Of a stretch of DNA of 26,287 nucleotides, positions 1-13,830 are shown one piece after another (the stretch's first letter is position 1; every line of letters starts with the position of its first letter). This DNA comes from a virus. Lineage: Duplodnaviria; Heunggongvirae; Uroviricota; Caudoviricetes. Location of the stretch: IMG/VR virus record IMGVR_UViG_2609460221_000003. One strand, written 5' to 3'. The position numbers and the translations under genes were made by a program. The notes under the pieces were generated by a model. It worked only from the letters and a program-made list of their open reading frames with translations, did no database searches and was not told the DNA's origin.

Positions 1-849
1 CGAGTGATTCGTGCTGCTGGTGGCGCTGGCGCATTGTCTGACTGGTTACTGCGCCATGTTAAATCCTGCCAGTGGCCACACGGCGATTATCACCACAGTG
101 AAACCGTCATTCACCGTTATGGTACCGGCGCAATGGTGTTGTGCTGGCACTGCGACAACCAGCTGCGCGACCAGACCTCCGAATCACTCGGGCAACTTGC
201 TCACCAAAACCTGTCTGCATGGATGATTGACGTCATACGCCATGCAATGAATGGCTCGCAGGAACGGGAATTATCGCTGGCTGAATTATCCTGGTGGGCG
301 GTCCGCAATCAGGTGGCGGACGCGCTACCGGAAGCGGTATTACGTCGTTCGCTGGGGTTGCGTGCGGAAAAAATCCGCTCAATGTACCGTGAAAGCGACA
401 TCGTACCGGGAGAGCAGACCGCCACCAGCATACTGAAACAGCGCACAAAAAATCTTGCGCCGCTGCCTCACGCCCACCAGCAACAGAACCCACCACAGGA
501 AAAGACGGTGGTCAGCATTGCCGTTGATCCGGAATCTCCGGCTCAGTATCTCCAGCGCCAGAAACCACAACGGGAAGAGATGCCTGTATACACGCGCTGG
601 GTAAAAACGCAGAAATGCATGACGTGTGGCAATCAGGCAGATGATCCGCATCACATCATTGGTCATGGACTGGGAGGGATGGGAACAAAGGCTGACGATT
701 TGTTTGTTATTCCGCTGTGTCGTAAATGCCATAACGAACTACACGCCGGGGTAAAAGATTTTGAAGAAAAACACGGTAGTCAGTTGTTGTTGCTGATTCG
801 TTTTTTAATGCACGCGAGAAATTCGGGTGTTCTGAAGTGGAAAGCATAA
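1..849 (+). CDS. Prophage nin-region protein, DUF968-like with C-terminal Cys/His zinc-finger (HNH-like) motif; 5' end truncated by window edge
   Basis: ORF open from window start, stop TAA 847-849. C-terminus has CMTCGN...HHIIGHGLGG...CRKCHNELH motif. Lies immediately upstream of rusA as in many lambdoid prophages. Family name is recalled, not searched. Confidence 0.55.
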   Translation, partial: RVIRAAGGAGALSDWLLRHVKSCQWPHGDYHHSETVIHRYGTGAMVLCWHCDNQLRDQTSESLGQLAHQNLSAWMIDVIRHAMNGSQERELSLAELSWWAVRNQVADALPEAVLRRSLGLRAEKIRSMYRESDIVPGEQTATSILKQRTKNLAPLPHAHQQQNPPQEKTVVSIAVDPESPAQYLQRQKPQREEMPVYTRWVKTQKCMTCGNQADDPHHIIGHGLGGMGTKADDLFVIPLCRKCHNELHAGVKDFEEKHGSQLLLLIRFLMHARNSGVLKWKA

Positions 850-1218
850 ATGACCGAACGCATAGAATTTGTTTTGCCTTACTCGCCGACGGTGAACACT
901 TACTGGCGACGCCGTGGCAGCACATATTTTGTATCAAAAGCCGGGGAGCGTTATCGCCGGGCAGTGGCGCTTATTGTTCGCCAGCAGCGACTGAAATTAA
1001 GCCTGTCCGGACGGCTGGCAATAAAAATTATTGCAGAGCCACCGGATAAGCGTCGTCGTGACCTGGACAATATTCTGAAAGCACCACTGGATGCGCTGAC
1101 GCACGCGGGGTTGTTAATGGACGATGAGCAGTTTGATGAAATCAATATTGTACGTGGCCAGCCAGTATCTGGTGGACGGCTGGAGATAAGAATTACAGAG
1201 GTGGGTGTGCATGAATAA
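850..1218 (+). CDS. rusA: Crossover junction endodeoxyribonuclease RusA (Holliday junction resolvase)
   Basis: 122-aa ORF; ATG at 850 abuts the upstream stop. Translation carries RusA-like segments (PDKRRRDLDNILKAPLDALTHAGLL, GGRLEIRITE) and typical length (~120 aa). Confidence 0.9.
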   Translation: MTERIEFVLPYSPTVNTYWRRRGSTYFVSKAGERYRRAVALIVRQQRLKLSLSGRLAIKIIAEPPDKRRRDLDNILKAPLDALTHAGLLMDDEQFDEINIVRGQPVSGGRLEIRITEVGVHE

Positions 1219-1900
1219 CCAGTATTTACAGTTTGTTCGTGAGCAACTCATGATTGCCACTGCAGATCTCAGTGGGTCGACAAAATGCCAGCTGGAAGCC
1301 TGGCAGGAAAATGCCCTGTTCGATACAGGGCGTTACAGACGCAAAAAAATTCGTTACCGCGATGAGGTAACCGGAAAAATGATCACGCGGGATAATCCCC
1401 CGATCCAGGGTAAACAATCACTGGCGAAAGGCTCATCAATTGCGCTGGTCAGTCCTGTTGAGTTTGCAACATCATCGTGGCGGCGTGCTGTTCTGGAACT
1501 GGAAGAACATCAGAAGGCGTGGTTGTTGTGGTGTTATGGCGGAAACATTTGCTGGGAGCATCAGATCGCGATAACGCAGTGGGGGTGGAGTGAATTTAAA
1601 ACTCAGTCCGGCTCCAGAAAAATTGCAGTGAAAACGCTGGAGCGTGTGAAGAAGTTGATCTGGCTGGCGGCACAGGATGTCAGAGGATGGGTTACCGGGT
1701 GTGAGGTCTACCAGAGACAGGAGCTTGCCAGACTGTGTGGAGTTAAGCCTGATAACTGGAGCCATAATTATGCGAACTACTGGCGTGAGATGTGCGATAT
1801 TTTTAAGCGCCTCGATAGAGAATCCTTGATTTGCTCCGTGAAAATAAGAGCGCAACAAAAAGCGACCTTTTCACGACGAGATATTGCAAAAGTCAATTAA
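1211..1900 (+). CDS. Late-gene antitermination protein Q-like
   Basis: 229-aa ORF; ATG 1211 overlaps rusA stop (ATGAATAA), RBS GAGGTGG 7 nt upstream. Position (after rusA, before a promoter/terminator pair and the lysis genes) is the canonical Q slot. Sequence-family assignment is from recall only. Confidence 0.6.
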   Translation: MNNQYLQFVREQLMIATADLSGSTKCQLEAWQENALFDTGRYRRKKIRYRDEVTGKMITRDNPPIQGKQSLAKGSSIALVSPVEFATSSWRRAVLELEEHQKAWLLWCYGGNICWEHQIAITQWGWSEFKTQSGSRKIAVKTLERVKKLIWLAAQDVRGWVTGCEVYQRQELARLCGVKPDNWSHNYANYWREMCDIFKRLDRESLICSVKIRAQQKATFSRRDIAKVN

Positions 1901-1925
1901 ATCGCGTATGTTTCGTATAAATCTG
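1884..1925 (+). promoter_or_regulatory. Putative late promoter (pR'-like): -35 TTGCAA (1884-1889), 17-bp spacer, -10 TATGTT (1907-1912)
   Basis: Sigma70-like hexamers with 17-bp spacing straddling the Q stop codon, followed about 50 nt later by a strong intrinsic terminator, as in lambda pR'/tR'. Confidence 0.35.
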
Positions 1926-1961
1926 ATATTTTGCCGATTTTGTACGTGATGGCAAAGTAAG

Positions 1962-1990
1962 AAAAAACCACCGCCAGGTGGTTTTTTTTA
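1962..1990 (+). terminator. Intrinsic terminator (tR'-like), bidirectional in form
   Basis: AAAAAA-CCACC-GCCA-GGTGG-TTTTTTTT: 5-bp GC stem, 4-nt loop, A-run upstream and 8-T run downstream. Confidence 0.7.
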
Positions 1991-2112
1991 TGTCCGAAAA
2001 TCGCGTCAGTACAGTAAACGCGCTGGTGGTTGCGAATACGGGTCTTTCAGCTTGCCGGCTTTTTCGACAAGAGTTATTGGTATGTCACGTTAACCGGAAA
2101 AGGGAAAAAGAC

Positions 2113-2310
2113 ATGCTAAAACAGCAGGATATGACAGAAGCCGCCAGAGTGGTGTTTAATGAATTAAGCGTTACCGACCCGGCGACAGTCAGGGAGATTG
2201 CACAGAATACTTACCTTTCACGCGAACGCTGCCAGTTAATACTGACCCAGCTTGTTATGGCGGGTCTGGCAGACTATCAGTTTGGTTGTTACAGACACCT
2301 TCAGTCCTGA
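2113..2310 (+). CDS. Small hypothetical protein (65 aa), possible helix-turn-helix; stand-alone moron unit
   Basis: ATG 2113 with AAGGGA upstream; stop TGA lies inside a perfect 7-bp hairpin followed by a T-run (2298-2322). The longer 110-aa track ORF from 1978 would start inside the tR' terminator, so the internal ATG is preferred. Confidence 0.4.
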   Translation: MLKQQDMTEAARVVFNELSVTDPATVREIAQNTYLSRERCQLILTQLVMAGLADYQFGCYRHLQS

Positions 2311-2322
2311 AGGCTTTTTTAT
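2298..2322 (+). terminator. Intrinsic terminator
   Basis: CCTTCAG-TC-CTGAAGG followed by CTTTTTTATTT. Confidence 0.6.
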
Positions 2323-2436
2323 TTGTGGTAAATGGGCGGCTGGTGGGTGTGGTGGTTGTTGCTTTCCCGTTGCTGAAAAAGAAAACGCCAGACTGTTAGC
2401 CGGGTATCAGTTAGCGGGAGAAATTTTTAAATACTT

Positions 2437-2650
2437 CACAATTCAGGCGGTTGACTGTTGTCTGGTTTGCGGGGAGTTTGTTAAAAGAAACTGGCATGGT
2501 GAATCCCCCTGTGCGGAGGGGCAATCAGCGAGTAGGTATATGGGATAATCGCGGATTCAGGTGCTGGTACTGAATTCACCGGGAGGCACCCGGCACCATG
2601 CAATGGCACATAGCGCCACTCTCCAGCCCCTCTCCGGAGGGGCTTTTCTG
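2437..2650 (+). ncRNA. Candidate structured RNA unit A (paralog of unit B), ending in an intrinsic terminator
   Basis: Shares three conserved blocks with unit B: GCATGGTGAATCCCCCTG(N)GCGGAGGGGC, CTGAA(T/C)TCACCGGGAGGCACCCGGCACCATG, and AGCCCCTCTCCGGAGGGG plus T-run. CATGGTG...CACCATG can pair as a closing stem. TTGACT box at 2451-2456. No plausible ORF. Confidence 0.3.
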
Positions 2651-2838
2651 TGCCGGATACATCACAGTTTCTGGAACCTTAGGTACTACAGTATCAGTCA
2701 GGGTGCTATATTTTCAGATGTGATGAAAGCCTGTCAGCAGGCAGGGCGTATCGGAAATGACCCAGTAGAGAAAACGTTGACTCAGATACCGGTGCTGAGT
2801 TACCGGGAAACCGGCATCACATGACCGCTATCCTTCCA

Positions 2839-2866
2839 GGCCCATCCGCTCCGGTGGGCCTTTTTA
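2839..2866 (+). terminator. Intrinsic terminator
   Basis: GGCCCA-(9-nt loop)-TGGGCC followed by TTTTT. Confidence 0.5.
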
Positions 2867-2904
2867 CTGCAGAAAACAGGTTCCCCGTTAAATGCTATGT
2901 TGCT

Positions 2905-3137
2905 CACAATTCAGTAAGTTGACAGTTGCCTGTCAGACTGGGCATTTGTTAAAAAAATTTCGCATGGTGAATCCCCCTGAGCGGAGGGGCGACTGGTGAC
3001 GGTATAATCTCTGATTATCAAAACGAGAATGACGCGGGTTTAGTGGCACCGGGCTGAACTCACCGGGAGGCACCCGGCACCATGTGCATGATGATACAGA
3101 TACGCGGCTTTAGCCCCTCTCCGGAGGGGGTTTCTTG
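2905..3137 (+). ncRNA. Candidate structured RNA unit B (paralog of unit A), ending in an intrinsic terminator
   Basis: Same three conserved blocks as unit A with a divergent central segment; TTGACA box at 2919-2924; CCCCTC-TCCG-GAGGGG hairpin plus GTTTCTT at 3114-3137. Confidence 0.3.
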
Positions 3138-3142
3138 TGGGC

Positions 3143-3171
3143 AAAAAAAGCCCGCGCTGGGAGACGCGGGC
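3143..3171 (-). terminator. Intrinsic terminator oriented for the minus strand
   Basis: A-run (3143-3149) then GCCCGCG-(8-nt loop)-CGCGGGC on the plus strand, i.e. hairpin followed by U-run on the minus strand. Confidence 0.4.
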
Positions 3172-3364
3172 GGCAAGGAATAAACAATAAAACGTGAAGT
3201 AATATTTCAGCTGGCGAATAATACCCCATAGTAATCACTCTGCGCAACTGCGCGGTCTTTTTCGAATTGCGGGCTGTCGTGTCTCTTCTGCCATTGTCCT
3301 GTAACTTCCGGACTTCAGCCCGCTCCTTATTTTACTCACAATATTATCCCGGCCGGGAGGATTC

Positions 3365-3477
3365 ATGGCATTTAAACACTATGACGTGGTCAGGGCGGTA
3401 TCGCCGTCAGACCTTGCGAAACGACTGACACAAAAACTGAAGGAGGCTGGCAGCCGTTTGGTAGTCCGGTGGCCATA
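3365..3477 (+). CDS. Out-of-frame N-terminal segment of the esterase gene (DUF1737-like leader), 37 codons
   Basis: ATG 3365 preceded by a strong RBS GGGAGGA at 6-nt spacing; translation MAFKHYDVVRAVSPSDLAKRLTQKLKEAGSRLVVRWP* ends at 3475-3477, overlapping the start of the main esterase frame. Confidence 0.45.
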
Positions 3478-5220
3478 ACCCCTTATACCCTGATGCAGGC
3501 GATTGCAGCAGAAGGTGATGTGGTGGTCAGTGGTGCAACTGAGCCGGATTGGTACTACGTCATCGTACTGGCCGGGCAGTCCAATGCCATGGCTTACGGT
3601 GAAGGGCTTCCGCTGCCGGATTCATACGATGCGCCCCATCCGCGCATTAAGCAACTGGCCCGTCGTAACACAGTGACTCCCGGTGGTGAAGTATGCGTAT
3701 TTAACGACATCATTCCTGCTGACCATTGTCTGCATGATGTTCAGGATATGAGTACGATTAACCATCCCCGGGCTGACCTGAGCAAAGGGCAGTACGGCTG
3801 TGTCGGACAGGGCTTACATATTGCCAAAAAACTGCTTCCGTATATCCCTAATAACGCGGGGATCCTGCTGGTACCATGCTGTCGTGGTGGTTCGGCATTC
3901 ACCCAGGGCACGGAGGGGACATTCAGCGAGTCCACGGGGGCCAGTCAGGATTCGGCTCGCTGGGGAGTGGGTAAGCCGTTATATCAGGATCTGCTTTTCC
4001 GCACGAAGGCAGCATTGCAGAAAAACCCGAAAAACGTTTTGCTGGCGATATGCTGGATGCAGGGGGAATTCGATATGACGAATGCCAGTTACGCCCAGCA
4101 GCCAGCAGCATTTCTTGCAATGGTACAGCAGTTCCGTGCTGACCTTGCCGGGCTGGCGGCGCAGTGTCACGGTGGAAGTCCGGCATCAGTCCCCTGGATT
4201 TGTGGCGACACGACATACGCGTGGAAACAAGAACACGGTACGCAATATGAAGTGGTATATGGTGCATATAAAGGTAAAGAATCCCAGCAGATTTATTTTG
4301 TTCCCTTTATGACCGATGGTAGCGGAGTTAATACACCGACAAACAACCCGTCAGAAGATCCTGATATTGCCGGGTCTGGTTATTACGGTTCGGCATCCCG
4401 AACGAACAAAAACTGGGTATCATCAAATCGCCCGACGCATTTCAGCTCATGGGCGCGTCGTGGCATTATTCCCGATCGTATGGCAACTGCTATTCTGAAC
4501 GTAGCCGGTCGCACCTTAGCCTTCATTAGTGGTAAGGCACCGGAAATCAAACCCTCGCCCGGCGGCGACACTCCATCGGGGCCGTCTGATGGTGACACAT
4601 CCGTTCGTACAGTCTCCCTGCTGCCGACAGCCGGAGAGGCTGCTGCGCAGGGCTGGACCATCACCGGCGGCAGTGTTGCGCTGGAAGATGGTGTGTTTAA
4701 GGTTACCAAGCAGAGCAATAAAACTTGGTCCCTGATGCATCCGGTGGATGACGCAGTCTCCCTGCTGACACGGGGTGGCAGACTGAGCTGTAAGTTTCGA
4801 CTGTCAGGCGCACTGACCAACAACCAGTTCGGTCTGGGAATTTATCTGTATACCGATGTAGCGTTACCTGACGTCGTGGCGATGACCGGGACTGGTAACC
4901 CGTTCCTGATGTCGTTCTTCACCCAGACCACAGACGGCAAACTGAATCTGATGCATCACAGGAAAGCAGGAAACACAAAGTTGGGCGAGTTCGGGAATTA
5001 CAGTAACGACTGGCAGACGCTGGAGCTGGTGTTCACCGCCGGCAGTGCCACGGTTACTCCGAAACTGAATGGAGTGGCTGGCCCGGCATTCCAGGTCATA
5101 AAAGACAGTCTGACACTGGGGCTGAATGCGCTGACGCTGACGGATATTACCAAAAATGCAGCGTATGGCGTTGAGATAGAAAGTCTGGTGCTGGAGATAA
5201 ATGCACCAGCATCATCATAA
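3469..5220 (+). CDS. Prophage sialate 9-O-acetylesterase (NanS-p-like, SGNH/SASA hydrolase with C-terminal extension)
   Basis: 583-aa ORF. The N-terminal part carries the esterase signature (VIVLAGQSNAMAYGEG; WMQGEFD). It sits in the usual NanS-p position between Q/toxin locus and holin. The true start is probably ATG 3365 in another frame (see findings). Confidence 0.8.
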   Translation: MAITPYTLMQAIAAEGDVVVSGATEPDWYYVIVLAGQSNAMAYGEGLPLPDSYDAPHPRIKQLARRNTVTPGGEVCVFNDIIPADHCLHDVQDMSTINHPRADLSKGQYGCVGQGLHIAKKLLPYIPNNAGILLVPCCRGGSAFTQGTEGTFSESTGASQDSARWGVGKPLYQDLLFRTKAALQKNPKNVLLAICWMQGEFDMTNASYAQQPAAFLAMVQQFRADLAGLAAQCHGGSPASVPWICGDTTYAWKQEHGTQYEVVYGAYKGKESQQIYFVPFMTDGSGVNTPTNNPSEDPDIAGSGYYGSASRTNKNWVSSNRPTHFSSWARRGIIPDRMATAILNVAGRTLAFISGKAPEIKPSPGGDTPSGPSDGDTSVRTVSLLPTAGEAAAQGWTITGGSVALEDGVFKVTKQSNKTWSLMHPVDDAVSLLTRGGRLSCKFRLSGALTNNQFGLGIYLYTDVALPDVVAMTGTGNPFLMSFFTQTTDGKLNLMHHRKAGNTKLGEFGNYSNDWQTLELVFTAGSATVTPKLNGVAGPAFQVIKDSLTLGLNALTLTDITKNAAYGVEIESLVLEINAPASS

Positions 5221-5370
5221 AAAGTGAGCCAGTCAAATGGAAGGTATCGTTAAACTCACCGGTAGTGTCAGTGGGTCGTCTGAGATGCCTGCATGAGTTA
5301 TCAGAGCCATCAGTACTTAACTGGTGGCTTTTTTTATTGTTGTCAGCTTCCGGATAACGGGAGACGGGGT

Positions 5371-5586
5371 ATGTACCAGATGGAAAAAATCACAACAGGT
5401 GTGTCATACACCACGTCAGCGGTGGGAACGGGCTACTGGTTCCTGCAGTTGCTGGACAGGGTTTCCCCGTCTCAGTGGGCGGCAATAGGCGTGCTGGGGA
5501 GTCTGCTGTTTGGGCTGCTGACATATCTGACTAACCTGTATTTCAAAATCAGAGAGGACCGTCGTAAGGCTGCACGGGGAGAGTAA
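5371..5586 (+). CDS. S: Holin, phage 21-type pinholin (class II, dual start)
   Basis: 71-aa product with two transmembrane segments and charged C-terminus ([13 protein letters not shown]); dual-start motif MYQMEK with ATGs at 5371 and 5380. Preceded by a hairpin plus T-run at about 5304-5336. Confidence 0.85.
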
Positions 5587-5590
5587 TTCA

Positions 5591-5935
5591 ATGACTCAAA
5601 ACTATGAACTGATTGTGAAAGGGATCCGCAATTTTGAGAATAAAGTTACGGTAACTTTAGCGTTACGGGACAAAAAACGCTTTGACGGTGAAATTTTTGA
5701 CCTGGACATCTCGCTGGACCGTGTTGAAGGTGCCGCGCTGGAGTTTTATGAGGCAGCAGCCAGAAGGAGCATCAGACAGGTCTTCCTGGATGTTGCTGCC
5801 GGGTTATGTGAAGGGGATGAGCAGTCGCCGGAAAAGCGCCCCGTAATTTTAGAGGCGCAGGATGTGTTGATAACCTACAGAGGAAAACTACCGGGAATAA
5901 TTACGGGTTCTCTGAAGAGTCCGCCGAAATGGTAA
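5591..5935 (+). CDS. Hypothetical protein (114 aa) between holin and endolysin
   Basis: ATG 5591 lies 4 nt after the holin stop (translational coupling), GGGGAGAG upstream; no recognisable family. Confidence 0.5.
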   Translation: MTQNYELIVKGIRNFENKVTVTLALRDKKRFDGEIFDLDISLDRVEGAALEFYEAAARRSIRQVFLDVAAGLCEGDEQSPEKRPVILEAQDVLITYRGKLPGIITGSLKSPPKW

Positions 5936-6173
5936 TTTTACCAGCATATTTTTCATCCAGTAATACAGCAAGCCGCCTGAAAGAGTCTTGTTGTTCCTGA
6001 GACCATTTGGGATTGCATGATTCAAACTGGATTGATGCCAGCGTTGATTGCATCTGTTCCCTTGGAATTGAGAATGCCAGATATGAGAAGGCGACGGTAA
6101 GGGTATTCACGTCTTCCCGAAGCCTGGAAATGCTGTCGAGCAACTCCTGTAGAGAAATGGTGTTATTGTCCAT
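5901..6173 (-). CDS. Hypothetical protein (90 aa), antisense to the lysis operon
   Basis: Minus-strand ATG at 6173 with RBS GAGGA 6 nt upstream; converges on and overlaps the 3' end of the 5591-5935 gene by 35 bp; no recognisable family. Confidence 0.4.
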   Translation of the reverse strand: MDNNTISLQELLDSISRLREDVNTLTVAFSYLAFSIPREQMQSTLASIQFESCNPKWSQEQQDSFRRLAVLLDEKYAGKITISADSSENP

Positions 6174-6278
6174 AAATAATCCTCATGATTGTATTGACCT
6201 GTTAGCAGCCTGAGGCAACAGGCTGGAACTGATAAACATATCCAGGGCTCAGAAACCGATAAATCCTGATAAATATCC

Positions 6279-6812
6279 ATGAACGCAAAAATCAGATACG
6301 GCCTGTCGGCTGCCGTTCTGGCGCTGATTGCCGCTGGTGCGCCTGCGCCTGACATTCTCGACCAGTTTCTGGATGAAAAGGAAGGTAACCACACCACGGC
6401 ATACCGTGATGGCGCGGGTATCTGGACCATCTGCCGCGGTGCCATCCTGGTGGATGGCAAACCTGTCGTTCCGGGCATGAAGTTGTCGAAGGAAAAATGC
6501 GACCGGGTTAACGCCATTGAGCGTGATAAGGCGCTGGCATGGGTGGAGAAAAACATCAGAGTGCCATTGAGTGAACCCCAGAAAGCGGGGATCGCGTCAT
6601 TCTGTCCGTACAACATTGGCCCCGGTAAGTGTTTTCCGTCGACGTTTTATAAACGAATTAATGCAGGTGATCGCAGGGGAGCGTGTGAGGCGATTCGCTG
6701 GTGGATTAAGGACGGTGGCAGAGACTGCCGTATTCGCTCAAATAACTGTTACGGTCAGGTATCCCGTCGTGACCAGGAGAGCGCGCTAGCGTGCTGGGGA
6801 ATCGACAGATAA
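6279..6812 (+). CDS. R: SAR endolysin (lysozyme, glycoside hydrolase family 24 / T4-lysozyme-like) with N-terminal signal-anchor-release segment
   Basis: 177 aa; Gly/Ala-rich weakly hydrophobic N-terminus (GLSAAVLALIAAGAPAP) followed by the catalytic E-x8-D-x5-T pattern (EKEGNHTTAYRDGAGIWT). Pairs with a pinholin as in phage 21. Confidence 0.85.
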   Translation: MNAKIRYGLSAAVLALIAAGAPAPDILDQFLDEKEGNHTTAYRDGAGIWTICRGAILVDGKPVVPGMKLSKEKCDRVNAIERDKALAWVEKNIRVPLSEPQKAGIASFCPYNIGPGKCFPSTFYKRINAGDRRGACEAIRWWIKDGGRDCRIRSNNCYGQVSRRDQESALACWGIDR

Positions 6813-6902
6813 GCAGAATATTTTGCTAATAAATGACGTTGGCCAAGGCGGACGGATAACACGAAATCCTGCGAACTGGCAAAATGTAAGTGAATAAAAG
6901 TA

Positions 6903-6941
6903 AAAACCCCGTTTGTTGGCAGCAAGCGGGGTTTTGTTTTT
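6903..6941 (+). terminator. Intrinsic terminator downstream of endolysin
   Basis: AAAAA-CCCCG-(15-nt loop)-CGGGG followed by TTTTGTTTTT. Confidence 0.6.
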
Positions 6942-7104
6942 ATGGCAGTAAGCTATGGGAGGCTGCCTTGATTGATTTTAGCAAACTGATTAGGGAGTTG
7001 CGACTCATGATTAGTCAATTACCAAACTGGAAATTTTTGCTGGTCTGGAGCATCCCTTTTTTATGGGTAGTATCCCAGTTAATTGTGGCAATTAAGGGGT
7101 AGCT

Positions 7105-7236
7105 ATGTCAGACAAACTCATAACGCCGGCAAAGGTCCTGTGTGTGATTGTCGGTATTTCATTTTCACTAATGCTGGTTGCTCTTTTTCTGTCCCTCGCC
7201 TGGGTGATGTTGTCTTCGTCGGGGCTGCTGGGGTGA
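7105..7236 (+). CDS. Small hydrophobic peptide (43 aa, single predicted transmembrane helix)
   Basis: ATG 7105 with RBS AAGGGG 5 nt upstream; MSDKLITPAKVLCVIVGISFSLMLVALFLSLAWVMLSSSGLLG; stop overlaps the next small ORF (GTGA). Confidence 0.3.
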   Translation: MSDKLITPAKVLCVIVGISFSLMLVALFLSLAWVMLSSSGLLG

Positions 7237-7355
7237 CAGTGACTGATGACATCAGCAGAGCGCTGGCTTTTGCTATTAAGTGGGTGGCTGTTGGTATTGC
7301 TGTGTCTCCGATGCTGTATGGGCTGGCAAAACTGGTCATTGCGCTGAAATCGTGA
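7233..7355 (+). CDS. Small hydrophobic peptide (40 aa), paralog of the 7367-7453 peptide
   Basis: GTG start overlapping the upstream stop; shares the motif RA(L/M)AFAI(K/R)(W/I)VA(V/I) with the next peptide, and similarity is visible at the DNA level. Confidence 0.25.
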   Translation: MTVTDDISRALAFAIKWVAVGIAVSPMLYGLAKLVIALKS

Positions 7356-7366
7356 ACTTTAAAAAG

Positions 7367-7453
7367 ATGAGTGCTGAACTTATTCGGGCAATGGCATTTG
7401 CCATTCGTATTGTGGCCATTGCTGTTCTGGTCTGGGCAATCCGTTGGTGGTGA
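7367..7453 (+). CDS. Small hydrophobic peptide (28 aa), paralog of the 7233-7355 peptide
   Basis: ATG 7367; [28 protein letters not shown]; stop TGA sits 1 nt before the Rz start. No clear RBS. Confidence 0.25.
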
Positions 7454-7454
7454 T

Positions 7455-7922
7455 ATGAACCGTGTTCTGTGTGTGGTGATTATTGTCCTGCTGGTAGCCT
7501 GTGGTGTGCTTAGTCTGGGGCTGAATCATTACCGCGATAACGCCATCACCTACAAAGCGCAGCGCGATAAAAAAGTCAGTGAGCTGAAACTGGCGAACGC
7601 GACAATTACTGATATGCAGATACGCCAGCGTGATGTCGCTGAACTTGATGCCAGATACTCGAGGGAATTAGCCGATGCGAGAGCTGAAAATGAAACTCTG
7701 CGTGCTGATGTTGCCGCTGGTCGTAAGCGCCTGCGGATCAACGCCACCTGCTCCGGTACAGTGCGTGAAGCCACCGGCACCTCCGGCGTGGATAATGCAA
7801 CCGGCCCCCGACTGGCAGACACCGCTGAACGGGATTATTTCATCCTCAGAGAACGGTTGATGACAATGCAGAAGCAGCTGGAAGGGGCACAGGACTATAT
7901 CCGCACTCAGTGCCTGAACTAA
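7455..7922 (+). CDS. Rz: Spanin inner-membrane subunit Rz (i-spanin)
   Basis: Translation closely matches lambda Rz ([16 protein letters not shown]...[11 protein letters not shown]...[13 protein letters not shown]); N-terminal transmembrane helix. ATG 7455 chosen over the longer track ORF start at 7371. Confidence 0.9.
7675..7860 (+). CDS. Rz1: Spanin outer-membrane lipoprotein subunit Rz1 (o-spanin), embedded in the +1 frame of Rz
   Basis: 61 aa, lipobox LVVSAC, proline-rich ([26 protein letters not shown]), matching lambda Rz1; fully nested inside Rz. Confidence 0.85.
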
Positions 7923-8246
7923 GTTTTGCTGATGCGCCGTATCGTCGCTGTATTCCCTCATTAACAGAGACCGCAGCCCGACAGGGAGACTCCTCTGCGC
8001 GAGTGTGCGGGGATAATCAAAAACGATACACACCGGGGTTTACCGCGTTAACGGAGCGCGGCGTTGTCCCCTCATAGTCGCCAGTCCGGTGCGATGGTGG
8101 AAGAAACAGGACGCCTCGCAAGCCCTGTTATGTCATGTGTCTGATTTGTGATTTAAGTCGGATAATTGTCGTTGCCATTAAGCAGAGGATTGATGACCGA
8201 CAGGGCGGCATTGTTAGAATAAGACTTATTCTTATCTGTGCGGGGA

Positions 8247-8579
8247 ATGAAAATGAAAAGAAATCTTCCGTTAATTATTTTGTTGTCTTCTCTGGTTATG
8301 GGCTGTACGCAACATAAAACAGATATGCCCCGACAGTTGGTTAAGGCATTACCACAATATCCGGCCTATGCAGCGGCAAATTATATAAAGGGACGGGTTG
8401 ATGTGAGGTTTGATATTGGTGCTGATGGTACTGTCACCCGAATTGAGTTTATTCGTTCAGAGCCGCACCATCTGTTTGATGAGCAGGTTGTAAAGGCGAT
8501 GGCAAAATGGCGATTTGAGAAGGACAGGCCGTGTAAAGGCGTGAAGAAAACGTTTATCTTTAGTCCTTCTGCACCCTGA
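8247..8579 (+). CDS. TonB C-terminal-domain lipoprotein (moron)
   Basis: Signal peptide with lipobox LVMGC, then a domain aligning to the E. coli TonB C-terminal domain (PQYPAYAAANYIKGRVDVRFDIGADGTVTRIEFIRSEPHHLFDEQVVKAMAKWRFE against TonB [56 protein letters not shown], recalled). Start may be 8253. Confidence 0.75.
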   Translation: MKMKRNLPLIILLSSLVMGCTQHKTDMPRQLVKALPQYPAYAAANYIKGRVDVRFDIGADGTVTRIEFIRSEPHHLFDEQVVKAMAKWRFEKDRPCKGVKKTFIFSPSAP

Positions 8580-8710
8580 TTATTTCATCAGAAATTAATT
8601 ATCACTCTGTTGTTATTCTGTACATCCCGGCAGGGTAAGTCTTGTTCTGTCGGATATGAAGATGAAATATTGTTGGAGGACAGTNGGTACCTGCTCCTGT
8701 AACCGAACGT

Positions 8711-8911
8711 TCATTTCTCGTTATTTGTCATGCTGGCCGGGCGCAGATGCGTTGCATCTGTTGCCAGCCTTCTCCTGCAGGCTTCAATAACCCACGCTGA
8801 AAAGTTACCGGACCCTTTATGCTCAAGGGCGATGTTGATCTGTTCAATCATGTGATTGGGGAAACGGATATTGCGGGTTGTGGTTCTGCGGGTACGGTTT
8901 TTCGATGACAT
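8711..8911 (-). CDS. Small ribbon-helix-helix-like DNA-binding protein (66 aa)
   Basis: Minus-strand ATG at 8911 with AAGGA 7 nt upstream; basic N-terminus followed by a strand-helix-helix pattern (RNIRFPNHMIEQINIALEHKGSGNFSAWVIEACRRRL). Divergent from the HNH gene. Confidence 0.45.
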   Translation of the reverse strand: MSSKNRTRRTTTRNIRFPNHMIEQINIALEHKGSGNFSAWVIEACRRRLATDATHLRPASMTNNEK

Positions 8912-8952
8912 ATTTATTTCCTTTACTGATTGCCATATGACGGGGATTTTAC

Positions 8953-9318
8953 ATGGCTGAGCTTCGTACACTCCAGAGCAGAATCAAAACACTGAATACC
9001 CGACGGGTGAATATTCTGAAGGGTGAACAGCGTCGTGTCAGTGGCAGTGCACGTGTTTCCCTCAAGCGTCATATCTGGCTCAGGGACGCCGGGCAGTGCC
9101 GTCTCTGTGGTCGTGTGGTTGACCTCTGTGACAGTGAACTCGATCACCGAATTGCACTTCAGTTCGGTGGTGGTAATGAGGAGACGAATCTCTGGACGCT
9201 CTGTACCGAATGCCATCGACAAAAGTCTGCTCGTGAAGCGGCGAGTGATATGCCGGACCCGACGCTGCCGGAGGTGTCCGGAGGTAGTGGCAGAGAGGAC
9301 GACATCATCGGACTGTAA
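8953..9318 (+). CDS. HNH endonuclease (terminase-associated)
   Basis: 121 aa with HNH motif CRLCGRVV...DHRIALQFGGGNEETNLWTLCTECHRQK; located just upstream of cos/terS as in HK97-type cos phages. Confidence 0.85.
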   Translation: MAELRTLQSRIKTLNTRRVNILKGEQRRVSGSARVSLKRHIWLRDAGQCRLCGRVVDLCDSELDHRIALQFGGGNEETNLWTLCTECHRQKSAREAASDMPDPTLPEVSGGSGREDDIIGL

Positions 9319-9410
9319 CCCGACCCCGGGGGGGTATCATCCGGCGTAAAAAACGATCGCTTTGGACACCGCGCCCCCTCTCACGCAGAGAAAAAATTCC
9401 CGTTTCANGG

Positions 9411-9538
9411 CAGTTAACATGTTAACTGGCTGCCCGGGCATTTTTGCGGTTTTTATCTTTATTATTCAGTTTGTTGTGCGGAAAAAATGTTAACAGGCTT
9501 TTTCAGCAAATGTTAACCAGGCAGCAGTTAACATTTGC
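9411..9538. repeat. Cluster of five TGTTAAC/GTTAACA motifs; candidate terminase-binding (cosB-like) elements
   Basis: cagTTAACATGTTAACtgg (palindromic pair, 9411-9427), aaTGTTAACagg (9487-9497), aaaTGTTAACcagg (9508-9521), cagTTAACATttg (9526-9538), in the 290-bp non-coding gap before terS. Confidence 0.4.
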
Positions 9539-9608
9539 GGCATGAGACGCCGGGAAAAATGGGCTGAACCATACCCGGCTGAGTGCGTTCTGGACCCGGG
9601 AGGAGGCT

Positions 9609-10172
9609 GTGCTGACAACGCAAAAACGAAAATTTGCGCTGGCGCTCATGTCCGGGAAAAACAAAACAGCGTCAGCCATTGCCGCCGGTTATTCGGCGAA
9701 GACCGCCAGGGTTAAAGGCTCGCAGCTGGCAAAAGATCCGGAGGTGCTTGCGTTTATAGCCCGTAAACAATGCGAGACGGTGGAGGTGGATGAGGTTCCT
9801 GTTTACCGGCAGAAAAAATCAGAGCAGGAGGATAAACCCCGTCGCCGTGAGGCGGCTGCAATACCACAGCCGGACGAAAACAATCCGGAGATGCCACCGT
9901 CCGCGGTGATGTCTCCTGGTATTGAATATATGGAGGATGGTCTTCCCGATCCGGTGAAAGCCATGGGGCGGATCCTGGTGGAAAACCTCTGCATTGATCC
10001 GAAACTGGCACTGGATGCGGCCTGGCGTCTGGCGCAGTTCACGCACCATAAAAAAGGGGATACCGGGAAAAAATCGGCAAAAGGTGATGCCGCGAAAAAA
10101 GCGGCTAACCGTTTTGCGGTGCCACCGCCACCCCGACTGGTGGTGAATAACGATAATGAGGGCAACGGATGA
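9609..10172 (+). CDS. terS: Terminase small subunit
   Basis: GTG start with strong RBS GGAGGAGG; N-terminal HTH typical of TerS (KRKFALALMSGKNKTASAIAAGYSAKTARVKGSQL); stop overlaps terL start (ATGA). Confidence 0.8.
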   Translation: MLTTQKRKFALALMSGKNKTASAIAAGYSAKTARVKGSQLAKDPEVLAFIARKQCETVEVDEVPVYRQKKSEQEDKPRRREAAAIPQPDENNPEMPPSAVMSPGIEYMEDGLPDPVKAMGRILVENLCIDPKLALDAAWRLAQFTHHKKGDTGKKSAKGDAAKKAANRFAVPPPPRLVVNNDNEGNG

Positions 10173-11830
10173 TACCTGTATGGAGCACAGCCTGCCCGGA
10201 CTGGGCAGAGCGCCTGAAAAAGGGGCTGTCGATTATTCCGGATCCGATTTATCCGGACGAGGCCGCACATGCCCTGGCGATTTTTAAACAACTGCGGATT
10301 GTGGATGCACCTGGTAGCCCTACGTTCGGGGAGTCCTGTGCACCGTGGGTGTTTGACCTGGTGGCGGCCCTGTTTGGCTCCTACGATGCGCAGACCGGTG
10401 TACGCCATATCAAGGAAGTTTTTATCCTTATCCCCAAGAAAAACTCGAAGTCCACGCTGGCCGCGGGGATCATGATGACTGCACTGTTACTGAACTGGCG
10501 GCAGGCGGCGGGTTACACGATTCTGGCCCCGACTGTGGAGGTGGCGGCCAACGCCTTCAACCCTGCCCGGGATATGGTACGACGTGACGATGATCTGGAT
10601 GACCTCTGCCAAGTACAGACCCATATCCGGACCATCACCCACCGGGTGACAGACACCACCCTGAAGGTGGTGGCAGCCGATCCGAATACGGTGTCCGGTA
10701 TCAAGTCCGTGGGTACGCTGATTGATGAGTTGTGGCTGTTTGGCAAGCAGTGCAAGGCGGAGGACATGTTACGTGAAGCCATAGGCGGCCTTGCCTCCCG
10801 CCCGGAAGGGTTTGTGGTGTATACGACCACCCAGTCGAATGAACCGCCCGCCGGGGTGTTCAGACAGAAACTGCAGTACGCCCGGGATGTGCGCGACGGC
10901 AAAATTCATGATCCGCACTTTCTGCCGGTGATATTTGAACACCCTCCTGAAATGGTGGAAAGCGGGGCTCACCTGCTGATGGAAAACCTCGCCATGGTCA
11001 ATCCTAATCTCGGCTATTCAGTGGATGAGGCCTTTCTGTACCGGGAGTACCGTAAAGCCCGGGAAGCCGGTGAAGAGACATTCCGGGGGTTCATGTCAAA
11101 ACACGCCAATGTGGAAATTGGTCTTGCCCTGCGCTCTGACCGCTGGGCGGGGGCTGATTTCTGGGAAGAGCAGGGCCGTTGTATCAGCCTGGACGATATC
11201 CTGCGTCGTGCTGATGTGGTGACGGTGGGGATTGACGGCGGAGGGCTGGATGATCTGCTGGGGATGTATGTGATTGGGCGTGACCGGGAGACCCGCGAAT
11301 GGCTGGGCTGGGGCCATGCCTGGGCGCATGAAACCGCGGTGGTCCGACGGAAGAGCGAGGCGTCCCGGTTTCAGGATCTTGTTGCCTGTGGAGATATGAC
11401 CATTGTCCGGCGTGTCGGGGATGACACGGCGGAAGTGGCGGAATATGTGCGTCGCATTCATGAGGCTGAGTTACTGGACCATATCGGTATTGACCCGTCA
11501 GGGGTGGGGCAGATTCTGGATTCACTGGCGGAAGCCGGGATCCCCGACGGAATTGTGGTGGGGATAAGCCAGGGCTGGAAACTGGGCGGGGCCATTAAAA
11601 CCACCGAGCGCAAACTGGCTGAAGGGGTGCTGGTGCATGGTGACCAGCCCCTGATGGCCTGGTGTGTCGGCAATGCCCGGGTGGAGCCTAAAGGTAACGC
11701 CATTCTTATCACCAAACAGGCCAGTGGACGGGGAAAAATTGACCCGTTGATGGCGCTGTTCAATGCGGTCTCCCTGATGTCCCTTAACCCGGAACCGAAA
11801 AAGAAAGAATATGCGGTTTTTTTCATATAA
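10169..11830 (+). CDS. terL: Terminase large subunit (ATPase/nuclease)
   Basis: 553 aa; Walker A-like ILIPKKNSKST; size and position typical of TerL. Confidence 0.9.
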   Translation: MIPVWSTACPDWAERLKKGLSIIPDPIYPDEAAHALAIFKQLRIVDAPGSPTFGESCAPWVFDLVAALFGSYDAQTGVRHIKEVFILIPKKNSKSTLAAGIMMTALLLNWRQAAGYTILAPTVEVAANAFNPARDMVRRDDDLDDLCQVQTHIRTITHRVTDTTLKVVAADPNTVSGIKSVGTLIDELWLFGKQCKAEDMLREAIGGLASRPEGFVVYTTTQSNEPPAGVFRQKLQYARDVRDGKIHDPHFLPVIFEHPPEMVESGAHLLMENLAMVNPNLGYSVDEAFLYREYRKAREAGEETFRGFMSKHANVEIGLALRSDRWAGADFWEEQGRCISLDDILRRADVVTVGIDGGGLDDLLGMYVIGRDRETREWLGWGHAWAHETAVVRRKSEASRFQDLVACGDMTIVRRVGDDTAEVAEYVRRIHEAELLDHIGIDPSGVGQILDSLAEAGIPDGIVVGISQGWKLGGAIKTTERKLAEGVLVHGDQPLMAWCVGNARVEPKGNAILITKQASGRGKIDPLMALFNAVSLMSLNPEPKKKEYAVFFI

Positions 11831-11893: not shown

Positions 11894-12883
11894 GTGACTC
11901 TTAAACGGGCCTGTTCCCTGCTGACGGTGAAATCCTTCAGTGAGGATGAACGAGTGATCACCGGGATTGCGTCAACGCCTTCTCCGGATCGGGATGGTGA
12001 CATCCTGGAGCCGGAGGGCGCGGAGTTTGGCAGTGCGATCCCGTTTCTCTGGCAGCATGACCATTCCCGCCCGGTGGGGCAGTGTACGGTGCGCCGGGTC
12101 AGCGAAGGGCTGGAAATCACGGCAACACTGGTGAAGCCCGTACCGGATATGCCGTCGCAACTGGCTGCCCGGCTGGATGAGGTCTGGGCGGCCATTAAGA
12201 CCGGGCTGGTCAGGGGGCTGTCCGTGGGCTTCCGTCCCCATGAATACACCTTTCTGGACGGAGGCGGACTGCATTTTCTGCGCTGGGAACTGATGGAGGT
12301 GTCTGCCGTCACCGTGCCCGCGAATGCGGAATGCACCATCCGGACCATTAAATCTTACGACCGCCCGTTTTCTGCCGCGTCCGGCAACCGGAAACCGGTG
12401 GTGAAAATCGCATCTTCTGCCGGCGCTGCGGCACAGTCAACAACCGTTTTTCATAAGGAAAAGACCATAATGAATATTGGCGAACAGATTAAAAGTTTTG
12501 AAAACAAGCGTGCAGCGCTGGCAGCCTCCCTTGAGGAGGTCATGACCAAAGCCGCAGAGGAAGGGCGCACGCTGGATGTGGAGGAGGAAGAGCATTACGA
12601 CAACACCGCAGCGGAAATCCGTCAGGTGGATGCGCACCTGAAGCGCCTGCGTGAACTGGAAGCCGGTAAGGCCGCCACGGCGCAGCCGGTGAAACAGGCC
12701 GGTAACGGGAATGTGGCCGCGGTGGCTTCTGCGCCGGTGATCCGTGTGGAGCAGAAACTGGATAAGGGGATTGGCTTCGCCCGCTTTGCCAAATCGCTGG
12801 CTGCGGCTAAAGGCGTCCGATCTGAAGCCTGGAAGTGGCCCGTCGTCAGTATCCGGATGACAGTCGTCTGCATCATGTCCTGA
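11894..12883 (+). CDS. HK97-family prohead protease with C-terminal scaffold-like coiled-coil region
   Basis: N-terminal about 170 aa has the prohead serine protease pattern (FLWQHDHSRPVG...GLSVGF...EVSAVTVPAN); C-terminal about 150 aa is a charged coiled-coil (delta/scaffold-like). Frame runs into the capsid ORF. Confidence 0.8.
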   Translation: MTLKRACSLLTVKSFSEDERVITGIASTPSPDRDGDILEPEGAEFGSAIPFLWQHDHSRPVGQCTVRRVSEGLEITATLVKPVPDMPSQLAARLDEVWAAIKTGLVRGLSVGFRPHEYTFLDGGGLHFLRWELMEVSAVTVPANAECTIRTIKSYDRPFSAASGNRKPVVKIASSAGAAAQSTTVFHKEKTIMNIGEQIKSFENKRAALAASLEEVMTKAAEEGRTLDVEEEEHYDNTAAEIRQVDAHLKRLRELEAGKAATAQPVKQAGNGNVAAVASAPVIRVEQKLDKGIGFARFAKSLAAAKGVRSEAWKWPVVSIRMTVVCIMS

Positions 12884-13830
12884 AATCGGCAGTGGGCGCG
12901 GGGACCACCACGGATCCGCAGTGGGCAGGCAGCCTGTCTGAATATCAGGAATACGCACAGGACTTTATTGATTACCTGCGTCCGCAGACCATTATCGGGC
13001 GATTTGGTCAGGGCGGGATCCCTGCACTTCGTCAGGTGCCGTTCAATATCCGTGTGCACGCCCAGGTGTCCGGCGGTGCTGCCGGCTGGGTGGGTGAGGG
13101 TAAGGCAAAACCCCTGACGAAGTTTGATTTTGAATCCATCACCTTCAGTCATGCGAAGGTGTCGGCCATTGCGGTACTGACGGAAGAATTGATCCGTTTT
13201 TCCAGTCCGGCTGCTGATGCACTGGTCCGTAATGCGCTGGCGGAAGCGGTGGTGGCGCGTCTGGATACAGACTTTGTGGACCCGAAAAAAGCCGCAGTGG
13301 CAGATGTCTCCCCGGCGTCCATCACCCATGATGTGAAGGGCACGGCATCAACCGGTAACCCGGATGCGGATGCAGAGGCTGCGTTTGGACAGTTTGTGGC
13401 AGCAAACCTGCAGCCCACCGGTGCGGTCTGGCTGATGTCCAGCACCAATGCCCTGGCACTGTCCATGCGTAAAAATGCGCTGGGTCAGAAGGAATACCCG
13501 GACATGACCCTGCTGGGTGGCTCCTTCCAGGGGCTGCCGGTGATTGTCTCCCAGTACGTGGGTGACCAGCTGGTGCTGGTGAATGCCCCGGATATTTATC
13601 TGGCGGATGACGGCGGCGTGGCAGTGGATATGTCCCGCGAGGCATCACTGGAAATGCAGTCTGAGCCGGGCGGCGACAGTACCACGCCGTCCCCGGTGGA
13701 GCTGGTTTCCATGTTCCAGACAGGCAGCGTGGCCATCCGTGCGGAGCGCTGGATCAACTGGCGTCGTCGCCGTACCGCGGCGGTGGCGGTGATCACCGGA
13801 GTGAACTACGGCAGTGCGTCCGGCGGCTGA
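12835..13830 (+). CDS. Major capsid protein, HK97 fold
   Basis: 331-aa ORF with HK97-like MCP character; begins in a different frame overlapping the protease/scaffold ORF by 49 nt. Confidence 0.8.
   Translation: MARRQYPDDSRLHHVLKSAVGAGTTTDPQWAGSLSEYQEYAQDFIDYLRPQTIIGRFGQGGIPALRQVPFNIRVHAQVSGGAAGWVGEGKAKPLTKFDFESITFSHAKVSAIAVLTEELIRFSSPAADALVRNALAEAVVARLDTDFVDPKKAAVADVSPASITHDVKGTASTGNPDADAEAAFGQFVAANLQPTGAVWLMSSTNALALSMRKNALGQKEYPDMTLLGGSFQGLPVIVSQYVGDQLVLVNAPDIYLADDGGVAVDMSREASLEMQSEPGGDSTTPSPVELVSMFQTGSVAIRAERWINWRRRRTAAVAVITGVNYGSASGG

Follow-up and report, generated by a model that had tools for sequence, protein, structure and literature searches.

The closest described counterpart of the gene considered here is the C-terminal domain of Escherichia coli TonB (residues ~150-239; structures 1u07, 2gsk, and 2grx). 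As far as these experiments are summarized in PMC9841981, overproduction of TonB's periplasmic domain, i.e., of an exported C-terminus without the membrane anchor, inhibited transporter-mediated iron import (Howard et al., 2001), and a TonB-box pentapeptide lowered colicin killing and infection by phage phi80 (Tuckman and Osburne, 1992). Phages themselves encode small outer-membrane lipoproteins, Cor (phi80, N15, HK022, and T1) and Llp (T5), which block entry at the periplasmic face of FhuA, and in lambdoid prophages the slot between Rz and cos holds morons such as lambda bor/iss, small lipoprotein genes with their own expression signals. Iron-regulated prophage cargo is exemplified by stx1, which Calderwood and Mekalanos reportedly described in 1987 as controlled by Fur. 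The window analyzed here, i.e., the whole stretch of 26,287 nucleotides of IMG/VR record IMGVR_UViG_2609460221_000003, represents a lambdoid prophage of E. coli (99.93% identity with the prophage of E. coli strain WP4-W18-ESBL-09, NZ_AP022069.1) and carries as an accessory gene (moron) a gene for a lipoprotein with a TonB C-terminal (TonB_C) domain. We propose, with about an even chance of being right, that this TonB_C lipoprotein is a TonB decoy that makes the lysogen resistant to TonB-dependent phages and bacteriocins.

The gene itself is no discovery, since databases already list its products as 'TonB family protein' or 'TonB C-terminal domain protein', the latter being the annotation of the homolog in phage 21. 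Full-text literature searches returned database annotations only and no functional study of the family, and the gene goes undiscussed in the phage 21 genome announcement. What is new here is the family-wide view (a lipoprotein with intact recognition residues), the conserved slot behind the lysis genes, the association with Fur boxes, the measured prevalence of the gene, and the counterpart pair of TolA/TonB tip genes carried by bacteriocin plasmids.

The gene lies on the plus strand in an open frame at 8238-8579 and is read from the ATG at 8253 (coding sequence 8253..8579, stop codon included), which gives a protein of 108 amino acids (RefSeq WP_000828072.1, 'TonB family protein') with the sequence MKRNLPLIILLSSLVMGC-TQHKTDM-PRQLVKALPQYPAYAAANYIKGRVDVRFDIGADGTVTRIEFIRSEPHHLFDEQVVKAMAKWRFEKDRPCKGVKKTFIFSPSAP. 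The initial annotation had placed the start of the gene at 8135 and had given its product 110 amino acids. The longer product would start at the ATG at 8247, in place of which phage 21 and some of the subfamily-1 alleles have ATA. Because this codon is not conserved, because a Shine-Dalgarno-like GGGGAA (8241..8246, plus strand; read from the sequence) is suitably spaced 6 nt 5' of the ATG at 8253, and because RefSeq uses the same start, the 108-amino-acid product is most likely the correct one. Position 8135 is the ATG of an unrelated 60-amino-acid open reading frame (ORF) that happens to be close to the left end of the conserved cassette; this ORF is out of frame with the TonB_C gene and unsupported, and was set aside as spurious.

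The TonB C-terminal domain occupies 8328..8564 (residues 26-104, corresponding to about residues 153-231 of E. coli TonB) with the topology alpha-beta-beta-alpha-beta. The initial annotation had recognized this domain and had named a Pfam profile search as a check, and in that search TonB_C (PF03544) was matched with 55.3 bits (E = 9.1e-15; gathering score 24.6), as was NCBIfam tonB_Cterm (TIGR01352) with 55.1 bits (cut-off 27.1). By BLASTP the alignment with E. coli TonB was gapless over TonB residues 153-230 with 30 of 78 positions identical (38%), and the closest solved structures by sequence were the E. coli and Salmonella TonB C-terminal domains, again without gaps. A structure model was calculated with AlphaFold2 from an alignment of 18 family sequences; its mean predicted local distance difference test score was 86.5, with residues 30-100 above 96, and it showed a three-stranded sheet in the alpha-beta-beta-alpha-beta topology. 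Comparison of the model using Foldseek with 1u07, 2gsk_B, and 2grx_C gave template modeling (TM) scores of 0.88-0.92 and root-mean-square deviations (rmsd) of 1.0-1.4 Å, including an rmsd of 1.0 Å (TM 0.92) on TonB from the BtuB:TonB complex (2gsk_B) and of 1.2 Å (TM 0.92) on TonB from the FhuA:TonB complex (2grx_C). The NCBIfam equivalog for full-length TonB was reached with at best 73.6 bits (cut-off 315), and the match covered model positions 157-240 only, i.e., the last ~85. Both the TonB transmembrane helix and the proline-rich spacer are absent, as had been noted initially: the N-terminus is a signal peptide, the alignment begins at TonB residue 153, and the ~8 residues that separate Cys18 from the domain leave no room for a proline-rich rod. 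Every test thus assigns the protein to the TonB_C domain family, and none makes it an energy transducer of the TonB kind.

A full cysteine/alanine scan of the TonB C-terminus has identified Y163, F180, G186, F202, W213, Y215, and F230 as functionally important (PMC3005593). All seven are kept in the TonB_C lipoprotein as Y36, F53, G59, F75, W86, F88 (a Y to F change), and F103, with Y36-P37 forming the YP motif. Counted across 39 distinct family proteins, the positions of Y163, F180 (F/Y), G186, F202, W213, and Y215 (F/Y) are each conserved in 39/39 and that of F230 in 38/39. W213, Y215, and F230 are conserved at only 22-26% among TonBs overall, are conserved in enterics, and have been suggested to play a role in transporter recognition (PMC3005593), so that their invariance in the family argues that the phage protein still recognizes the targets of enteric TonB. 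The segment corresponding to TonB residues 158-171, which is in contact with the TonB box of BtuB (PMC3005593), retains PQYPA, and Leu stands at the position of Q160, where Q160L is known as a functional suppressor allele of TonB (PMC2533080). The lipoprotein thus resembles the TonB C-terminal domain in fold, gapless identity, YP motif, and these seven residues, and differs from TonB in lacking the helix and spacer, in its N-terminal lipid anchor (with a predicted outer-membrane location), and in a diverged strand beta3 and position of R166.

The N-terminus MKRNLPLIILLSSLVMGC is a lipoprotein signal peptide (8253..8306 including the predicted lipidated Cys18, encoded by TGT at 8304-8306; signal peptide MKRNLPLIILLSSLVMG) with a basic n-region (K2, R3) and the lipobox LVMGC already named in the initial annotation, and it matches PROSITE pattern PS51257, as do 38 of the 39 distinct family proteins. 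Asp at position +2 is the inner-membrane retention signal of E. coli lipoproteins. In the TonB_C lipoprotein this residue is Thr, and across the family it is T, S, or A and never Asp, so that by this sorting rule the protein is predicted to be sorted to the outer membrane.

In the proposed mechanism a complete TonB C-terminal domain would be held on a tether of ~8-15 residues directly under the TonB-dependent transporters. Since it has neither the transmembrane helix nor the proline-rich rod of TonB, it could not be energized by ExbB/ExbD and could then only occupy the partners of the tip of TonB. These would be the TonB boxes of transporters (FhuA, FepA, Cir, and BtuB) and of group B colicins, and possibly also the C-terminal domain that TonB itself carries. 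We infer from this arrangement that the protein may bind TonB boxes, inhibit TonB-dependent import and thereby benefit the lysogen, the outcome being a partial phenocopy of a TonB-minus strain with resistance to T1-like and phi80-like phages and to TonB-dependent colicins and microcins, at the price of some loss of iron and vitamin B12 uptake. The decoy function is favored because of the interference obtained with the overproduced TonB periplasmic domain and with the TonB-box peptide. As far as they are described in the source cited above, the laboratory fragments would be the direct experimental model for this mechanism, with the difference that they were artificial, soluble, and overproduced, whereas the TonB_C lipoprotein is natural, phage-borne, predicted to be lipid-anchored, and apparently regulated.

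The analogy with Cor and Llp concerns the proposed effect only. Cor and Llp share a separate fold of their own, and no relationship of sequence or fold with them was detected, all significant family and fold matches of the TonB_C lipoprotein being to TonB_C. The two proteins also target FhuA specifically, whereas numerous transporters, and colicins as well, would be the expected targets of a TonB-tip decoy. Such a decoy should leave the TonB-independent phage T5 unaffected, but Llp blocks this phage too. A PADLOC search with the TonB_C lipoprotein yielded no match, with only a non-significant hit at E = 0.038.

The gene appears to have its own promoter. A consensus scan predicted a sigma-70 promoter at 8193..8220 (plus strand) with the -35 element ATGACC (8193-8198), a 16-nt spacer, and an extended -10 element TGTTAGAAT (8212-8220), with 9/12 consensus matches plus TG (TG-T-TAGAAT). 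The initial annotation had pointed to the palindrome GAATAAG-A-CTTATTC at 8217-8231, which is indeed present and widens to a perfect 8-1-8 dyad of 17 bp, AGAATAAGACTTATTCT (AGAATAAG-A-CTTATTCT, 8216..8232). It covers the predicted -10 element and the expected transcription start and is a candidate operator. The palindrome is exact in 42/42 subfamily-1 loci examined, and the phage 21 subtype lacks its right arm. Among polymorphisms within subfamily 1, none of ~10 nearby variable sites fell inside the palindrome (~1.5 expected), a number too small to give power. A function of the palindrome as an RNA hairpin was also considered and rejected, its folding energy being unremarkable (z = -0.81).

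The initial annotation had seen a weak likeness to a Fur box. The best match to the 19-bp Fur consensus in the window is AATAAGACTTATTCTTATC (8218..8236), which lies 35 nt 5' of the start codon and agrees at 13/19 positions (dinucleotide-shuffle p = 0.020). For the relatives the 80-120 nt upstream of each lineage were scanned, with starts fixed at the MK... signal peptide. In 7 of 13 diverged lineages a match of 14-16/19 was found at a distance of 26-63 nt upstream, and two more, including the window, have one of 13/19. The strongest were those of the Salmonella-type group (P0034; 15-16/19 at -34, box TGATAATTATTATCA, which includes TGATAAT-T-ATTATCA), P0035 (15/19 at -26), P0152 (15/19 at -30), and the chromosomal P0039 (15/19 at -36), followed by P0038 (14/19 at -29), the chromosomal P0044 (14/19 at -63), the Klebsiella-type group (P0037; 12-14/19 at -37), and the plasmid-borne P0075 (13/19 at -30). 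There was no site in P0099 and P0142 (11/19 each) or in the phage 21 type (10/19). Among 631 upstream regions of other ORFs in the same loci, which served as controls, 4.0% reached 13, 1.1% reached 14, and 0.16% reached 15 matches (8.7, 1.6, and 0.8%, respectively, in the AT-rich subset), so that the likeness seen in the window is strengthened by the matches of its relatives at the same position. Several of these upstream regions are otherwise unalignable, and for this reason the recurrence is hard to explain by chance, with the lineages being not fully independent.

The motif TGTTAG(A/T)AT directly 5' of the box is common to the upstream regions of the window, phage 21, the Salmonella type, P0035, and P0038, which indicates that the palindrome of the window is positionally homologous to Fur boxes of bona fide appearance. 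Our conclusion from these upstream sequences is that the TonB_C lipoprotein family probably is, or ancestrally was, regulated by iron through Fur. Fur control of the copy in the window is plausible, and its perfect dyad could equally be a changed operator. The proposed decoy would accordingly be expressed from its own promoter, with the -10 element and start site under an operator that in most relatives is a near-consensus Fur box, and under Fur control its amount would rise in step with that of the Fur-controlled receptors. This would make sense for a one-to-one blocker, which has to scale with the receptors. Read-through late in the lytic cycle is also likely, since the gene is co-oriented with the late operon. 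The resemblance to stx1 is that of a phage accessory gene under the control of the host Fur, and some carriers of the TonB_C gene are Stx1a phages. In contrast to stx1 the Fur link of the TonB_C gene is a sequence prediction, weak in the copy in the window and absent in the phage 21 subtype.

On the 3' side of the gene an imperfect 12-bp hairpin (8627..8653, plus strand) was the only structure found in a search for a canonical terminator, and it does not qualify as one because no T-run follows. The hairpin holds a copy of the palindrome with 3 mismatches, AGGGTAAGTCTTGTTCT (8632-8648; chance expectation 0.06 per window).

The gene is widespread in E. coli. Subtype 1, to which the window belongs, was found in 417 of 5426 complete E. 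coli genomes and also in Stx1a-converting phages, phage JLK-2012, and Lys8385Vzw. Subtype 2 (the phage 21 type), the protein of which is 71% identical to that of the window, was present in 1225 of the 5426 genomes, and its carriers include phage 21, ev017, Perceval, prophage CP-933N of EDL933, the sequence type 131 (ST131) strain EC958, LF82, and avian pathogenic E. coli (APEC) strains. Between the two E. coli subtypes the nonsynonymous divergence (dN) was 0.19 and the synonymous divergence (dS) 1.63 (dN/dS = 0.11), alike for signal peptide and domain. A library-wide search extended the family to TonB_C proteins of 107-156 amino acids with 33-51% identity, which are mostly lipoproteins. The slot behind the lysis genes on the strand of the late operon is kept in at least seven prophage lineages with four types of endolysin and three or four types of terminase. 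The order of genes is spanin, TonB_C, HNH, terminase in the Salmonella-type group, the flanks of which resemble ST64B; holin, GH108 endolysin, TonB_C, and P22-type terminase, with further genes on both sides of TonB_C, in the Klebsiella-type group (phage ST13-OXA48phi12.4); and Q, holins, GH19 endolysin, Rz, TonB_C, Nu1/GpA terminase in P0099. Two relatives are chromosomal without a mobile-element context, namely P0044 and P0039, the latter located between ahpCF and a glutathione S-transferase gene.

Several subtype-2 variants (P0012, P0013, P0016, P0018, P0019, and P0021, with 130 member sequences in P0012) have frameshifted C-termini without strand beta3, possibly because of errors in assembly or because of repeated inactivation close to the A-rich codons of GVK(R/K). 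A scan of genome contigs with a single protein returned as its sole match the 418-bp contig NZ_SJEX01000172.1 of a Modestobacter excelsi assembly, which codes for 67 residues from the N-terminus of the E. coli protein of phage 21 type and is almost certainly a contamination of this actinobacterial assembly.

Other relatives are found on plasmids. P0142 (156 amino acids, lipobox LMGC), in the region 2355-5471 of an IncFII plasmid contig (L103, Logan SRR28250906), is divergent from a pore-forming colicin operon; this operon is complete, with a colicin (ColA_N and Colicin domains), an immunity gene on the opposite strand, and a lysis lipoprotein. P0075 (129 amino acids; plasmid contig L019, region 5348-11737) lies between the stability genes for ParM/StbA and StbB and a DUF6694 gene, which is followed by a QatABCD-like defense cluster (KAP NTPase, QatB, and TatD). 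A 10,060-bp ColRNAI plasmid of Klebsiella pneumoniae (NZ_CP073304.1; L104) holds a two-gene operon of TolA and TonB tips (4926-5659), divergent from an operon for a cloacin/colicin E3-like bacteriocin, its immunity protein, and lysis protein (1894-4080). The first gene of the pair encodes a lipoprotein with a TolA C-terminal domain (lipobox LTAC; PF06519, E = 2.4e-24) and overlaps the start of the second, the product of which is a TonB_C protein (PF03544, E = 8.9e-11) exported by means of an ordinary signal peptide. A tblastn search with a family member detected 418 plasmids, 371 of them from Klebsiella and many of 10-12 kb. Like the prophage gene, this operon amounts to the export of the C-terminal domain alone of an import motor from a mobile element, whereas its TonB_C protein is of a different lineage, lacks a lipobox in its otherwise ordinary signal peptide, comes together with a TolA domain, and is carried by a plasmid and not a prophage. 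The pair looks like a set of import-motor decoys. The relatives next to colicin and Qat genes and the Klebsiella bacteriocin plasmids point to conflicts between bacteria, phages, and plasmids and lend contextual support to the decoy function. A broader and more tentative proposal, to which we give somewhat less than an even chance, is that mobile elements of enterobacteria generally use exported, unenergized C-terminal domains of import motors against phages and bacteriocins, in the form of an outer-membrane TonB tip of Fur-regulated ancestry in prophages and of a TolA-tip lipoprotein with an exported TonB tip on bacteriocin plasmids.

A number of observations weigh against a TonB decoy. Transporters far outnumber TonB, and a decoy would therefore need high expression. 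Strand beta3 is the main docking strand of TonB for TonB boxes, and of the eight residues of this strand (TonB 225-232, VVNILFKI; KKTFIFSP here) F230 alone is identical (1/8). R166 of TonB is reported to touch the plug of FhuA, and 35/39 family proteins have Tyr in its place; Lys at position 226 is another residue specific to the family (33/39), and the range of partners may thus differ from that of TonB. The Fur match of the window reaches only 13/19, and the commonest E. coli subtype has no Fur-like site. A strong block of TonB would be costly in iron starvation, yet the family is common in such successful pathogens as ST131, LF82, and APEC, which speaks for an effect that is weak, selective, or differently directed. 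The chromosomal relatives outside mobile elements with their Fur boxes fit a housekeeping role in iron metabolism at least as well as one in defense. The receptor-binding domain of the tail-tip protein J of the WP4-W18-ESBL-09 prophage is of the lambda/434/21 type (~50%) and not of the FhuA type, so that the phage would be unlikely to exclude its own type and any exclusion would be aimed at other phages.

Some of these observations would be accommodated by a protein that helps or tunes iron uptake, in which an outer-membrane TonB-like tip under Fur control aids TonB-dependent transport to the advantage of the host at low iron. Variants of this explanation, which we regard as unlikely in each of its forms, are that the protein parks on idle transporters and so frees scarce TonB for loaded ones, or that it holds periplasmic binding proteins beneath the transporters. 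Fur-like boxes throughout the family including the chromosomal relatives P0039 and P0044, the retained transporter-recognition residues, and the frequency of the gene in invasive lineages that need TonB for virulence are all consistent with such a role, but there is no known way for an unenergized TonB tip to promote transport, and exported TonB periplasmic domain inhibited uptake in the single experiment that bears on this, as summarized in PMC9841981. The plasmid contexts with a colicin operon, a Qat cluster, and a TolA/TonB pair suggest protection and not nutrition. Rather improbable, too, is the re-use of the TonB-like fold for another partner such as peptidoglycan, an envelope protein, or a host factor, by which the protein would be a conversion or virulence factor of the kind of Bor, Iss, or Lom. 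The TonB_C fold is widely re-used in multi-domain proteins, the slot is shared with bor/iss in phage 21 and ST131, and the diverged beta3 and R166 and the family-specific residues K226 and Y166 are consistent with this explanation; yet the seven functional residues of TonB are invariant or conservatively replaced, even those three that TonBs in general conserve poorly, neither the YP motif nor the contact segment 158-171 has been lost, and the Fur link connects the family to the biology of iron and TonB.

A role in lysis, in which a spanin-like accessory protein made late would help to disrupt the outer membrane, is suggested by a match to PHROG 1267 (E = 1.3e-42 over the full length), which carries the label 'Rz-like spanin', and by the position of the gene, which in at least seven prophage lineages comes directly after the lysis cassette and has the same orientation. 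We consider this very improbable and have rejected it, as the label is the sole link to spanins: a complete and separate Rz/Rz1 pair is already present, the protein resembles neither Rz or Rz1 nor the unimolecular spanins, and its C-terminus is globular without a membrane helix. Furthermore, BP-4795 and many relatives do without the gene, an opposite-strand bor separates it from Rz in phage 21, the long non-coding gaps, foreign base composition, and Fur-type operator mark it as an independent unit, and members of the family also occur on chromosomes and plasmids. The label seems to be based on position, given the complete Rz/Rz1 pair and the missing spanin similarity; it appears wrong and is probably spreading via phage annotation pipelines. 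Hardly credible at all is a non-functional leftover of a captured tonB gene, as implied by older annotations ('partial tonB-like membrane protein') and by the frameshifted C-termini of several subtype-2 variants, when dN/dS is 0.11 at a dS of ~1.6, the protein has gained a lipoprotein signal peptide, which 38/39 family proteins conserve, and relatives from several genera still have the domain in full at identities down to 33-45%.

If the TonB_C lipoprotein is indeed a decoy, a common prophage gene would alter the response of lysogens to TonB-dependent phages, colicins, microcins, siderophore-linked antibiotics, and iron limitation, with consequences for the choice of therapy phages, for competition in the inflamed, iron-poor gut, and for susceptibility to siderophore-conjugated ('Trojan-horse') antibiotics. 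It would be a natural case of a host motor domain that was captured and re-targeted as a dominant-negative inhibitor, would explain the paired TolA/TonB tip genes on bacteriocin plasmids, and, if confirmed, would be a clear surprise for specialists of phages and of TonB. Should the broader proposal hold, these proteins would form an unrecognized class of superinfection exclusion and bacteriocin cross-immunity that hits energy coupling and not a single receptor, the prophage form of which occurs in as many as ~30% of sequenced E. coli, with phage 21 and ST131 among its carriers.

The TonB_C gene is situated in an AT-rich accessory cassette (8112..8756) between Rz/Rz1 and HNH/terminase, i.e., at the boundary of lysis and packaging genes where the initial annotation had placed it. 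By blastn against phage BP-4795 the flanks 7452-8111 and 8757-9700 are collinear at ~92-93%, the interior is unmatched, and BP-4795 has an unrelated 246 bp instead. The guanine plus cytosine content of the insert is 43.6% vs. 54.8% for the window, and the gene is surrounded by 330 bases of non-coding DNA upstream and 131 downstream. The absence from BP-4795, the foreign base composition, and the long non-coding gaps give the cassette the anatomy of a moron, which agrees with the initial classification. It had further been suggested that the gene occupies the slot where lambda carries bor. This is right in spirit, as the slot is the same, but in phage 21 and ST131 EC958 the homolog lies just past bor/iss, between Rz and a Nu1-type terminase gene, and thus stands beside bor/iss and does not replace it. 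Bor/Iss is an unrelated protein encoded on the opposite strand, whereas the TonB_C gene is on the strand of the late operon and co-occurs with bor/iss.

Upstream of the cassette the window encodes a P21-type holin (5293-5586), a lysozyme (6279-6812), the i-spanin Rz (7371..7922, plus strand, RefSeq start 7455; Pfam Phage_lysis, E = 1.3e-49), and embedded in it the o-spanin Rz1 (7675-7860, plus strand; Pfam Rz1, E = 4e-22), so that no contribution of the TonB_C gene is needed for a full spanin pair. Downstream follow a convergent YlcI/YnfO gene (DUF3950; 8711..8971, minus strand), the 3' end of which lies inside the cassette, an HNH endonuclease gene (8953..9318, plus strand), and the genes for the small (9609-10172) and large (10169-11830) terminase subunits. 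Between lysozyme and Rz (7083-7453) there are short hydrophobic ORFs (43-90 amino acids), which RefSeq lists as three tiny hypothetical proteins; in BP-4795 this gap contains an anti-repressor gene (ant). A 583-amino-acid ORF at 3469-5220 with SASA (sialate O-acetylesterase) and DUF6645 domains is of the NanS-p type that is typically found downstream of stx, and no tRNA genes were found in positions 1-4000 of the window.

The window contains seven ambiguous bases (8685, 9408, 16746, 17698, 21776, 22068, and 24397) and 8 gap positions relative to NZ_AP022069.1. ORFs are broken near 12850 and at 20811-22100, and the major capsid gene (11894-13830) and the tape-measure gene (19618-22860), which are intact in NZ_AP022069.1, are split into overlapping ORFs, either as an artefact of sequence quality or by real decay. 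At 15629-16161 an in-frame tandem repeat (162 bp, 3.3 copies, 94% matches) is located within an 861-amino-acid ORF, which by the annotation of NZ_AP022069.1 encodes the portal protein.

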